This document shows, piece after piece, positions 11,182-38,201 of a stretch of 64,000 bases of DNA. Location of the stretch: NCBI GenBank assembly GCA_944391225.1, contig CALXSS010000003.1, forward strand, positions 4,715 through 68,714, written 5' to 3'. Position 1 is the first letter of the stretch. Each line of letters opens with the position of its first letter. Position numbers and translations under genes: made by a program. This DNA is from an uncultured Clostridia bacterium. GTDB lineage: Bacteria; Bacillota; Clostridia; UBA1381. A model generated the notes under the pieces. It was not told the DNA's origin. It ran no database searches and worked only from the letters and a program-made list of their open reading frames with translations.

Positions 11182-11410
11182 GAGGCTGTTGCAAAACTCA
11201 ACGAGTTTGCAACAGCCTTGGGGGCTTTAGAAAAATAGTGCAGAACGGACGAAACGAAGGGGCGCAGCCCCCTTGCCCGAAGGCGTACGGGGGTACGTCG
11301 AGCGGTGAGTTTCGTTCGTAACATAAAGCGATTTTAATGCTGAATTTTTCATTTATGAAAATTTCCACCTTGAACTTGATAGCAGTGATCCTTAAAAATG
11401 GCTTATCTGC
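11182..11410 (-). repeat. Modular structured repeat, long copy A (terminator hairpin plus ~190-nt structured body)
   Basis: About 95 percent identical by eye to 51721-51951. Read on the minus strand it ends in a 16-bp hairpin plus T-run. It has an internal 11-bp long-range stem (ACGAACGAAAC/GTTTCGTCCGT), a cUUCGg tetraloop hairpin and competing G5/C5 runs. Confidence 0.8.
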
Positions 11411-35366: not shown

Positions 35367-35472
35367 GAGGCTGTTGCAAAACTCAACGAGTTTGCAACAG
35401 CCCCCTTGTGGCTTTGAAAAATAGTGCAGAACGGACGAAACGAAGATGCGCAGCCCCCTTTGCTACAGCCCC
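35367..35472 (-). repeat. Modular structured repeat, short copy C (terminator hairpin + S1/S2 modules + half-arm), downstream of putP
   Basis: gaggctgttgcaaaactcaacgagtttgcaacagcc...atagtgcagaacggacgaaacgaagatgcgcagccccc, joined directly to tttgctacagcccc. Confidence 0.75.
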
Positions 35473-35480
35473 ATTAATTA

Positions 35481-37019
35481 TCAGTCCTTAAGCTTTCCAA
35501 CTTGTTCAAACTCGTCGATTATCTCCTTTGAAGGAGCGGGAGTTACAAGACTTACTATAACAATTGCAGCTACCGATACTATGAATGCCGGCAGCAGCTC
35601 GTATATGTTTAGAACAGGGCTCAATCCGCTTATAACATATTTCCAAAGGAATACCATGATCCCTCCTGATACCATGCCTGCAAGAGCGCCCCATTTGTTC
35701 ATGCGTTTCCAGAACAGCATAAGCAGCATTGCGGGTCCGAACGCCGCGCCAAATCCAGCCCAAGCAAATGATACTATATTAAATACCGAGCTTTCCGGAT
35801 CAAGAGCAAGGAATACTGCTACTACCGATATTGCCACAACTGTGAGGCGCGCAAGTATCATAGTTGTTTTCTCGCTAATATTCTTGAAAATACATTCCTT
35901 TACAATGTTCTGCGAAACACTTGATGACGCCGCAAGCAGCTGCGAATCAGCCGTTGACATTGTCGCCGCAAGTATTCCGGCAAGGATTATTCCCGCAAGC
36001 AGAGCAGGTATTATTCCGTGCCTGCTTATAAGACCTGATATCTGAACTATTATCGTTTCAGGATCGCTAAGCTCTCCCATAACTCCGGCATTAGTCATTC
36101 CAAGGCCTATTATACCGATAAATATTGCCACACCAAGTGAGATAACTACCCATACTGTAGCTATACGGCGCGAAAGCTTAAGCTCTTTAGTATCGCGCGC
36201 TGCCATAAATCTGAGGAGTATGTGCGGCATACCAAAATAGCCCAAACCCCATGCAAACGTTGATACGATTTTTAATGCGCCATACGGTGTTGAAGTACCT
36301 GTAACCTTATCATATACAGCGTTGAAATCAAGATAGCCCGGCAGACTCTTCGCATTTTCAATAACACTGTCCATGCCGCCCGCTGAAATGATACCGTAGC
36401 CCAGAACTATAACAAGCGCAACAGTCATTACTATGCTCTGTATAAAATCCGTTGTACTTGCAGCCAGAAATCCGCCCATTGTTGTATAAAGCACTATAAC
36501 AACGGCGCAGACTATCATTGCCGAAACATAATTTACACCAAAAAGTGACGCAAACAGCTTTCCGCACGCCGCAAATCCTGAAGCAGTATACGGAACAAAG
36601 AATACAATAATCACTGTTGCCGCTATTACCGACAGGATCTTGGATTCATCTCTGAATCTGTTTGAAAAGAAAGCCGGTATAGTTGTTGAATTTTTACATA
36701 CGTATGAATATCTGCGTATGCGCTTTGAAACTATCAGCCAGTTTACATATGTACCCACAGCAAGACCTATAGCCGTCCATGCCGCATCGGCAACACCTGT
36801 TAGATATGCCACGCCCGGAAGTCCCATAAGCAACCAGCTGCTCATATCCGACGCCTCGGCGCTCATAGCTGTAACGAAAGGTCCCAGCTTTCGTCCACCC
36901 AGATAGAAATCGTCCGTGTTCTTATTAGCCTTTGAACAGCGCACGCCTATCCACAACATTGCCAAAAGATATACCACAATGGATATCATTATGCAAATGT
37001 TTGATGATGTTATTAACAT
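35481..37019 (-). CDS. putP: Sodium:proline symporter (SSS family)
   Basis: 512 aa, about 13 TM segments. DFYLGGRKLGPFVTAMSAEASDMSSWLLMGLPG is the typical PutP N-terminal signature. Confidence 0.85.
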   Translation of the reverse strand: MLITSSNICIMISIVVYLLAMLWIGVRCSKANKNTDDFYLGGRKLGPFVTAMSAEASDMSSWLLMGLPGVAYLTGVADAAWTAIGLAVGTYVNWLIVSKRIRRYSYVCKNSTTIPAFFSNRFRDESKILSVIAATVIIVFFVPYTASGFAACGKLFASLFGVNYVSAMIVCAVVIVLYTTMGGFLAASTTDFIQSIVMTVALVIVLGYGIISAGGMDSVIENAKSLPGYLDFNAVYDKVTGTSTPYGALKIVSTFAWGLGYFGMPHILLRFMAARDTKELKLSRRIATVWVVISLGVAIFIGIIGLGMTNAGVMGELSDPETIIVQISGLISRHGIIPALLAGIILAGILAATMSTADSQLLAASSSVSQNIVKECIFKNISEKTTMILARLTVVAISVVAVFLALDPESSVFNIVSFAWAGFGAAFGPAMLLMLFWKRMNKWGALAGMVSGGIMVFLWKYVISGLSPVLNIYELLPAFIVSVAAIVIVSLVTPAPSKEIIDEFEQVGKLKD

Positions 37020-37037
37020 ATAAACATCCTCCTTATT

Positions 37038-37351
37038 AAATTTTAATTATAAGCAATTGTAAAACTACGTTTCACAATTGATCTGGCTAAAGTAGGTTAA
37101 AAAAGTTCCATCCGATTACATAAAATACGTATGTTGAAACTTTTTTAACCCAAATTTCTGACGCACATTCAGCAATTTTGCAAAGCAAAATTCAGCCTTT
37201 GGCTGACCGCGCTTTCTTGCGCGGTGCACATCGTTCAGAAATTTATTAAATTCGAGGGTACACCCTCGAGCACCCATCAAATAGGCAGCAATTGCAAAAC
37301 TCTTTTGGAGTTTTACAATTGCCCAAAATTTTAATTAGGCAATTGTAAAAC
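37038..37351 (-). promoter_or_regulatory. Hairpin-dense leader region of putP, bracketed by 27-nt direct repeats
   Basis: Near-perfect stems at 37054-37080, 37095-37150, 37152/37244 (long range), 37174-37192, 37193-37205, 37206-37225, 37252-37269 and 37288-37322. Direct repeats aaattttaatta..gcaattgtaaaac at 37038-37065 and 37326-37351. Confidence 0.6.
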
Positions 37352-37405
37352 CACAATAAGTTCTACTATCATTACGGAGCACAAAAACCGCACACCTATC
37401 TTAAA

Positions 37406-37434
37406 ATTATATCATAAAACCTTCCTTTTGGCAA
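37406..37434 (-). promoter_or_regulatory. Sigma-A-type promoter on the putP strand (TTGCCA-17-TATAAT)
   Basis: Minus strand reads aTTGCCAaaaggaaggttttatgaTATAATttt. This implies a leader of about 380 nt. Confidence 0.55.
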
Positions 37435-37462: not shown

Positions 37463-37491
37463 TTGAAATTCACCGTATTTTATGGTATTAT
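37463..37491 (+). promoter_or_regulatory. Promoter for the HAD-hydrolase gene (TTGAAA-17-TGgTATTAT)
   Basis: taTTGAAAttcaccgtattttaTGgTATTATatc. It lies downstream of the ORF-track start at 37482, which supports the ATG at 37548. Confidence 0.5.
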
Positions 37492-37547
37492 ATCATATGC
37501 AGCGCACAGCGCTGATCTATTCTGACACGAAAGGAACATATCCTGAT

Positions 37548-38201
37548 ATGAAATATAAATATATTTTTCTGGATCTTGACGGTACGCTGACCGATCCCAA
37601 GGAAGGTATCATAAAATGTGTGCAGTATGCTCTTGACAAAATGGGATGTCCGGAACCGGATCAATCAAAGCTAATGAAATTTATCGGTCCTCCGCTTATG
37701 GTCTCATTCACCGAATTCTGCGGCTTCGACCAGACCAACGCGCGACGCGCTGTGACATATTACAGAGAACGCTTTGCAGACAAGGGACTGTTTGAAAACC
37801 GTGTGCTTGACGGAGCTGAGGAAATGCTTGAAAAACTTGTAAAGCATTCGCGCATACCCGTAATAGCCACTTCCAAGCCCAAGGTTTTTGCTGACATAAT
37901 CGTAAAGCATTACGGATTAAGACCTTATTTGAAAATGGTTTCAGGGGCTGAACTCAGTGGAGTGCGCGACAGCAAAAACGAGGTCATTGAATATGCTATA
38001 GAAAAGCTTAAAATAGACGACAGGTCAAAAATAATCATGGTTGGCGACAGAAAACAGGACATTATCGGCGCAAAACAATGCGGTATAGACTCCTGCGGAG
38101 TTCGTTTCGGCTACGCAGAGCCCGGAGAGCTTGAGGCAGCCGGAGCCGATTATATTGCAGACGATTTCAATGAGCTGTACCAGATACTTATACAGCGCTA
38201 A
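37548..38201 (+). CDS. HAD-superfamily hydrolase (phosphoglycolate-phosphatase-like)
   Basis: MKYKYIFLDLDGTLTD (motif I DxDGT) and GDRKQD (motif IV). RBS GAAAGGAA. Confidence 0.85.
   Translation: MKYKYIFLDLDGTLTDPKEGIIKCVQYALDKMGCPEPDQSKLMKFIGPPLMVSFTEFCGFDQTNARRAVTYYRERFADKGLFENRVLDGAEEMLEKLVKHSRIPVIATSKPKVFADIIVKHYGLRPYLKMVSGAELSGVRDSKNEVIEYAIEKLKIDDRSKIIMVGDRKQDIIGAKQCGIDSCGVRFGYAEPGELEAAGADYIADDFNELYQILIQR

Follow-up and report, generated by a model that had tools for sequence, protein, structure and literature searches.

The putP locus and its upstream region

The region described here lies between two divergent genes of a 64,000-nt window (the whole stretch of DNA that was analysed) from a Candidatus Ornithomonoglobus MAG, the host genome G000 (2.63 Mb, 144 contigs, 81% complete). 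As shown in Table 1, one of the two genes is putP, whose product is identified as a sodium/proline symporter by profile search (TIGR02121 equivalog, 525.5 bits against a cut-off of 515.5; PF00474, E = 3.6e-85), and the other encodes a HAD-family hydrolase. The HAD gene is syntenic beside putP in the related locus L015 and probably in L010, its start being visible in L015 only. A minus-strand TTGCCA-17-TATAAT promoter about 380 nt before the putP ATG had been named in a preliminary description of this DNA, and it is located at 37434-37406, 386 nt upstream. Judging from its sequence, this site is apparently the native putP promoter and orthologous to that of the relatives; the comparison with L010 and L015 was made by eye, with no formal alignment.

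Between the promoter and the start codon, all the stems listed in the preliminary description are found where it had placed them, and their density is as unusual as it had stated. Folded as RNA, 37020-37405 reaches a predicted −133.5 kcal/mol, while shuffled sequences reach −87.2 ± 5.4 kcal/mol (z = −8.6; 0 of 100 shuffles equal it). The final 22 nt are single-stranded in the predicted MFE fold, which leaves the Shine-Dalgarno (SD) sequence of putP unpaired. No known riboswitch had been recognised, and a permissive scan against Rfam 15 agrees: no T-box, riboswitch or leader family is returned, only eukaryotic microRNA hairpin models, all of them sub-threshold, with a best score of 30.7 bits against a gathering score of 74 for a plant microRNA hairpin model.

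Table 1. Features of the putP upstream region and the genes that bound it, in window positions
Feature	Position	Strand	Remarks
putP, sodium/proline symporter gene	35481..37019	-	ORF; ATG at 37019; downstream of the element
Shine-Dalgarno AAGGAGG of putP	37028..37034	-	5 nt downstream of the proximal target-site duplication
Target-site duplication, gene-proximal copy	37038..37049		12 bp, TAATTAAAATTT in putP sense
MITE copy, 276 bp	37050..37325		Long form: module M1 present, M2 absent; from blastn and alignment
A-end	37050..37080		Terminal inverted repeat 37050-37065 and its inward inverted copy; adjoins the putP RBS
Body hairpin	37095..37150		16-nt arms 37095-37110/37135-37150, 94% complementary; reported as 13-16 bp
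Long-range stem AAATTTCTGA / TCAGAAATTT	37152-37161/37235-37244		Encloses three small hairpins
Module M1, optional, 63 nt, three hairpins	37169..37231		Inside the loop of the long-range stem
TCGAGGG palindrome TCGAGGGT/ACCCTCGA	37252..37269		Insertion point of M2 in other copies
B-end	37288..37325		Inner arm and terminal inverted repeat 37310-37325; hairpin 37288-37302/37308-37322
Target-site duplication, distal copy	37326..37337		12 bp, TAATTAAAATTT
Lone extra terminal repeat GTTTTACAATTGCCTA	37336..37351	-	Reads towards putP, directly outside the distal duplication
putP promoter-like site TTGCCA-17-(TG)TATAAT	37406..37434	-	386 nt upstream of the putP ATG
HAD-family hydrolase gene, divergent	37548..38201	+	PF13419, E = 1.9e-26; bounds the intergenic region

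Anatomy of the element

The hairpins of the preliminary description all fall within 37050-37325, and a 12-bp direct repeat brackets the whole block. The block begins and ends with terminal inverted repeats of 16 nt, TARGCAATTGTAAAAC, here at 37050-37065 and 37310-37325, and the duplication script returns it as C3 41764-42039 with the target-site duplication AAATTTTAATTA on either side. At each end of the element, the terminal repeat pairs with a copy of itself that lies further inside; the resulting hairpin has 12-bp arms (37054-37065/37069-37080) and a 3-nt loop at the A-end, and 15-bp arms around a 5-nt loop at the B-end. Five occurrences of the 13-mer GCAATTGTAAAAC are found in the region. 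In the interior, the body hairpin at 37095-37150 is kept in 10 of 10 aligned copies, and the long-range stem is a simple hairpin in short-form copies. The only internal ORF encodes 54 aa with no Pfam match. Terminator-like sites inside the element amount to none on the plus strand and three weak ones on the minus (putP-sense) strand.

The B-end also contains an outward-facing TTGCAA-16-TACAAT on the plus strand (37292-37319; 9 of 12 promoter matches). By its sequence this is a plausible outward promoter, confined to the B-end. A "mobile promoter" as a general explanation of the element was considered and rejected, because the hairpins with 3-nt loops have no -35 box at a workable spacing.

A dispersed family in the host genome

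The block at putP is one of many. When the intergenic region is compared with the host genome by blastn, at least 10 near-full copies are found at 88–99% identity, and the repeated part comprises 37039-37337 only. The core 12-mer occurs 69 times at about 35 loci, against 0 occurrences of a reversed-pattern control. Many copies lie at contig ends, as expected because repeats break assembly. An alignment of ten copies has sharp borders with unrelated flanks, the ends having the form TA[AG]GCAATTG...CAATTGC[CT]TA; on one side the end sequence extends to TA[AG]GCAATTG[TC][AG]AAAC, with its complement on the other. Flanking direct repeats of 10–16 bp, mostly 11–12 bp, are detected by script at 11 loci including putP, and the duplicated targets differ at every locus, being AT-rich and without a consensus. 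Copy sizes range from 214 to 406 bp, while solo hairpin forms of 35–41 bp, likewise flanked by duplications, would be leftovers of recombination between direct end copies.

The copies differ in their modules. In blastn comparisons, 37179-37234 is absent from five short-form copies, and this difference is M1. A second module, M2, which is homologous to M1, lies in the loop of the TCGAGGG hairpin of other copies, once or twice in tandem; M1 is thus present 0–1 times and M2 0–2 times per element. The two modules differ by two-sided changes that preserve hairpins 2 and 3, they are bounded by the short repeat GCACAT or GTACAC, and neither is found outside the element family in G000. Another repeat family of G000 (11182-11410 and 35367-35472) was rejected as a relative of the element, having only an 11-mer in common with it (E = 0.027). 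A blastn search of the element against plasmid and phage collections gave no match.

About 20 genes lie behind copies of the element. They are functionally unrelated, with housekeeping genes among them, and include those for CTP synthase (pyrG), PNPase (pnp), guanylate kinase (gmk), ribosomal protein L9 (rplI), a class II aminoacyl-tRNA synthetase, isopropylmalate synthase (leuA), a PTS permease, an ABC-F ATPase, GH43 enzymes, a LexA-like protein and a ferredoxin. Where the flanking gene is known, the B-end faces the gene in about nine copies and the A-end in two (putP and C28). Within G000 alone, this 9:2 orientation bias is not significant.

Insertion history at putP

The history of the locus can be read from its relatives. 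Orthologues of putP in ten other species of the genus have 69–80% identity, and in 10 of 10 related species the putP promoter lies about 45 nt from the start codon with the element absent. In L010 and L015, a TTTATTGC...TTTTATG.TA.AAT block stands about 45 nt before putP, and when compared by eye the TTTATTGC block lines up with the TTGCCA-17-TATAAT site at 37406-37434. Since the relatives have element-free putP leaders of about 45 nt, the long leader is therefore a product of insertion. The end motif itself is found in 2 of 26 other species of the genus, at one or two sites each. A conspecific empty site was sought with a 27-mer among metagenome contigs, with no match, records of the same genome possibly being masked in that search.

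The locus may have been entered more than once. The lone extra terminal repeat at 37336-37351 is read, from its sequence and position, as a relic of an earlier insertion at the same site. Before the second insertion the relic end would have stood 15 nt from GGAGG, which is the usual spacing of the family, and the present element used the 12-mer abutting that end. The stretch behind the relic end (37352-37398) has no matches elsewhere; 37352-37410 was also tried as a member of a second MITE family of G000 and rejected, only the end repeat being similar (score 22 against a shuffle maximum of 27). The same architecture recurs at L090 of G040, where an element, an 11-bp repeat, a second element, the same repeat and an RBS follow one another. 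The double hits at putP and L090 suggest an RBS-anchored choice of target, and such anchoring would predict that the gene-proximal copy of the duplication is re-used. Attraction to existing ends is an alternative cause of the double hits.

Elements with the same ends in other Clostridia

The ends are more widespread than the body. When 401 genomes of the class were scanned for the end motif, 27 matches were found in G000, 36 in G138 and 9 in G293, which represents another genus of the same family, with at most 2 in every other genome. In G138, a relaxed 13-nt motif gives 45 matches (26 forward, 19 reverse). A Clostridia MAG from water-deer colon, G040, has about 28 end-motif sites. End-sharing elements are present in at least four other Clostridia genomes, with bodies unrelated between genomes and duplications of about 12 bp, and G000 itself contains a second MITE family with these ends. 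In a Candidatus Limivicinus MAG, a solo hairpin is flanked by a perfect 12-bp duplication. Two left ends in G040 that at first had no partner proved to belong to ordinary MITE copies whose right end is a variant.

Placement upstream of ribosome-binding sites

The placement of these elements was tested by counting element ends that lie 13–18 nt upstream of an SD sequence with a start codon; each element has two ends, so the ceiling is about half. Such ends make up 16/37 in G000, about 11/31 in G040, 6/11 in G293 and G240 together and 5/18 in G138, against 1.1% of 40,000 random positions, and SD-proximal ends are about 40 times commoner than at random positions. In about two-thirds of some 21 copies, as counted by eye without a script, 5 nt separate the duplication from GGAG, giving the pattern TSD-NNNAA-GGAG. 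On the other side, several copies have a native -10 box within the distal duplication or immediately upstream of it, for instance TGTATAAT at C15, TGATATAAT at C19 and TGTATAAT at L093. Given this position of the -10 box, the target therefore falls within the first transcribed bases. Most copies in G138 have no adjacent RBS, a distribution that weakens the targeting reading. In the literature, no description was found of an RBS-targeting MITE or IS, or of RBS-anchored target choice by a cut-and-paste-type bacterial transposon.

Search for the mobilising transposase

Profile searches of G000 (81% complete) for PF01609, PF00665 and PF00872 returned no match. The end motif, with 2 of 12 mismatches allowed, does not occur at 12 loci matching PF01609 in G039, G040 and G042, which lie mostly on short contigs, and the DDE_Tnp_1 contigs of four genomes besides G000, within G039-G043, are likewise without these ends. 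Inverted pairs of ends 1–3 kb apart were sought in G000, G040 and G138, and only MITE-sized pairs were found. The absence of a partner says little, because an IS of 1.5 kb could be lost from the G000 MAG, which has no contig below 2.5 kb. Only the duplication length points to a mobilising enzyme and to the family it would belong to. The ends (TAAGC/TAGGC) match the "-AATR" signature of the IS4 subgroup at 2 of 4 fixed positions, and membership of the IS4 family is accordingly put forward here as a hypothesis.

Interpretation and alternative explanations

With a probability of about 0.85, the hairpin array before putP is one MITE copy that entered a putP leader of originally about 45 nt, 5 nt upstream of the SD sequence, and duplicated a 12-bp target; its hairpins are then parts of the element and not sensors of proline. 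The element represents a familiar kind of MITE, in a family that is new and lineage-specific. The preliminary description had proposed an attenuator or a protein-binding RNA for the proline transporter, a proposal that fails on the presence of the same block, at 88–99% identity, before many unrelated genes. Control specific to putP, which it had also assumed, is contradicted by a comparison of upstream regions, the block being absent from the putP leaders of relatives and matching no Rfam family. Its third suggestion, an array of palindromic repeat units, came close to the truth; the palindromes belong to one mobile element, bounded by terminal inverted repeats and flanked by a target-site duplication, rather than to a putP-specific array. 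Dispersed repeats in unrelated intergenic regions, which it had named beforehand as evidence against its reading, are found at about 35 loci. A long co-transcribed putP leader is possible.

One alternative is that putP has its own cis-regulatory leader RNA, working as an attenuator, riboswitch or protein-binding RNA in response to proline or the osmotic state. This would be in keeping with the strong promoter-like site 386 nt upstream, with the very stable predicted structure (z = −8.6) and with the weak terminator-like hairpins on the putP-sense strand. It is nevertheless extremely improbable: the block recurs before about 20 unrelated genes, a 12-bp duplication flanks it, the putP leaders of about 45 nt in ten related species are without it, and no Rfam family reaches threshold. 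Another explanation takes the palindromes as operators of a global transcription factor, making up a regulon whose sites spread or were kept through binding and not through transposition. In its favour, many start codons are preceded at a constant distance by 13-mer arms that pair as perfect palindromes and share sequence with -10-like TACAAT boxes. Even so, it is very unlikely: besides the palindromes, copies include 200–400 bp of conserved body that is not operator, the target duplications around them vary from locus to locus, and the flanked genes have no function in common. In addition, 26 other species of the genus have almost none of the motif, an odd finding if the regulon were conserved. 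The ends may still be bound by a host factor or by the transposase.

It is also conceivable that the element is a MITE whose proximity to ribosome-binding sites was brought about by selection, so that RBS-proximal placement could reflect survivorship in place of target choice. Insertion would then occur anywhere in AT-rich DNA, and only the gap between the -10 box or transcription start and the SD sequence would be harmless, or even useful through the B-end promoter. The AT-rich duplicated targets without a consensus agree with this, as do the native -10 boxes just upstream of or inside several duplications, the B-end with its 9/12 promoter match facing the gene in about 9 of 11 G000 copies, and the majority of G138 copies that are not RBS-adjacent. 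However, neutral sites far from genes should then be rich in copies, and they hold a minority in G000, G040 and G293; the duplication-to-GGAG distance has a sharp maximum at 5 nt; elements with unrelated bodies but common ends have the same habit; end hairpins with 3-nt loops face genes in G040 and at putP without a usable -35 box at 16–18 nt; and the same 12-mer was hit twice in two genomes. Placement by selection is considered doubtful on this account. The choice between targeting and survivorship is drawn from the sequence evidence of spacing, common ends and double hits.

The uncommon trait of the family is its fixed distance upstream of the RBS, which can be tested and is common to same-ended elements in several Clostridia. 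More broadly, it is tentatively proposed, at somewhat less than even odds, that elements with TARSCRATTGTAAAAS ends form a MITE superfamily of Clostridia with non-homologous cargo in each host, whose transposase picks 12-bp targets lying about 5 nt before an SD sequence, mostly in one orientation. Such elements would home to leaders, including those of essential genes, and the same site could be entered again.

Proposed mechanism and significance

In the proposed mechanism, a transposase of the DDE type would act in trans, recognise the ends of about 16 nt and make a staggered cut of about 12 bp, similar in length to that of the IS4 family. The enzyme would prefer a site at a set distance upstream of AAGGAG-like DNA; such a preference would explain both the same ends with unrelated bodies 13–18 nt before ribosome-binding sites in several Clostridia and the two hits at putP. 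Once inserted, the element would be tolerated, being self-folding, leaving the SD sequence free and having no terminator in the common orientation; for these reasons the displaced native promoter could read through it. The putP copy lies in the rarer orientation, with weak terminator-like hairpins on the putP-sense strand, and it may dampen rather than regulate the gene.

For annotation, one false riboswitch or attenuator candidate is removed, and a strongly folded "leader" in a MAG ought to be compared with the repeats of its own genome before it is called a regulator. The element family would also explain part of the fragmentation of the assembly of this species. If the proposed targeting is true, a MITE at a fixed distance before the RBS of genes such as pyrG, pnp, gmk and rplI would offer a natural means of rewriting 5' UTRs throughout the genome, and a setting in which to study the recognition of a translation signal in DNA by a transposase. 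If survivorship is the only cause, the family represents an ordinary lineage-specific MITE expansion.

Comparison with known systems

Several families of small palindromic repeats can be compared with the putP element. REP/BIME sequences are short palindromes without target duplication, associated with RAYT (Y1) transposases and located mostly 3' of genes, whereas the putP element has copies located 5' of genes and flanked by 12-bp duplications. Correia elements (NEMIS) of Neisseria are small palindromic MITEs near gene starts that are co-transcribed with the genes, and their ends can create promoters and processing sites. They duplicate TA and not 12 bp, and the putP element differs from them in sequence and in host phylum. 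To our knowledge, no fixed SD spacing has been described for Correia elements.

Bacterial MITEs in general are AT-rich and strongly base-paired, with terminal inverted repeats and target-site duplications, and are mobilised in trans (Croucher et al. 2011, PMC3049150). The putP element family resembles them in its terminal inverted repeats, duplications, small non-coding size, structure and many dispersed copies, as well as in its location in transcribed or regulatory DNA. It differs in that no IS with matching ends was found in the searches above, the duplication, of about 12 bp, is long, two abutted end-repeats make up a hairpin at each end, and placement is tied to ribosome-binding sites. 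The BOX elements of Streptococcus pneumoniae have the organisation boxA-boxB(n)-boxC, in which the ends are constant and the boxB units vary in number (PMC3049150). Similarly, the putP element has constant ends around an optional hairpin module that is absent, single or in tandem and folds independently, and its copies are often upstream of genes; no sequence relationship between the two is seen, and, unlike BOX, the putP element has a clear 12-bp duplication and terminal inverted repeats, with its modules located in hairpin loops.

In the IS4 family, the duplication is 10–13 bp in the IS4 subgroup and 10–12 bp in IS231 (De Palmenaer et al. 2008, PMC2266710), a range into which the duplication of about 12 bp of the putP element fits. 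The published end signatures of IS4 and IS231 are -AATR... or CAT... (PMC2266710); the second end base of the element is likewise A (5'-NA), but the signatures match only in part, and no DDE_Tnp_1 gene with these ends was found in the genomes examined. Some members of the IS4 subgroup have a striking insertion specificity in the target arms (PMC2266710), and a specificity of this kind would fit the oriented, anchored insertion of the putP element.

Sequence context of putP

A promoter-like site whose −10 hexamer is preceded by TG lies 57 nt ahead of the start of the HAD-family hydrolase gene; it and the putP promoter stand back to back, and the 11-mer ATTATATCATA is common to both promoter regions. 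Just downstream of putP, another repeat family of the same genome is represented by one copy; only the 11-mer TTGCAAAACTC is common to this repeat and the B-end hairpin of the putP MITE (the 15-bp hairpin with the terminal inverted repeat), so that putP is bracketed by two repeat families that, judged by sequence comparison, are unrelated.

Positions of the repeats, hairpins and promoter-like site
Feature	Position	Strand
Promoter-like TTGAAA-17-TATTAT, TG preceding −10	window 37463-37491	+
11-mer of both promoter regions	window 37406-37416 and 37487-37497	
Repeat downstream of putP	window 35367-35472	
Truncated putP-type MITE copy, start of contig C3	L004:2-135, upstream of the window	
Second-family MITE copies, same genome (G000)	C9:1-74, C47:41-141, C120:1-76, outside the window	
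Tandem elements, water-deer colon Clostridia MAG (G040)	L090:234-466	
Solo hairpin, Candidatus Limivicinus MAG	L037:1019-1079	
Palindromes, single Spirochaetaceae MAG	L030, L032, L043, L049, L050	

MITE copies within and beyond the genome

The contig that holds the window itself starts with a truncated putP-type copy, which has 99% identity to the putP MITE across 134 bp, and further putP-type copies are located at contig ends in C10, C26, C41, C43, C59, C79 and C80; the family is therefore one cause of assembly breaks in this genome. A second MITE family is also present, with the related end GTTTTACAATCGGCTA and a body different from that of the putP MITE; each of the three copies observed is truncated by the start of its contig, and an RBS is found 14–18 nt beyond their end. 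In the water-deer MAG, a tandem pair of elements has an 11-bp repeat between them, and a further copy of that repeat separates the second element from the RBS; this tandem is a double insertion into one target, like the putP locus.

Similar hairpins in other lineages

The same pair of 13-nt arms, GCAATTGCAAAAC ... GTTTTGCAATTGC, forms palindromes at no fewer than five sites in one Spirochaetaceae MAG, and Treponema MAGs also carry them (L029, L038, L047); these may be related mobile hairpins or may match by coincidence.

The Candidatus Limivicinus MAG contains a solo 35-bp end-to-end hairpin, TAGGCAATTGTAAAAC-GGA-GTTTTACAATTGCCTA, bracketed by a perfect 12-bp duplication, ACTTATTCTTCT, which suggests that the mobilising enzyme is active in further Clostridia lineages as well.
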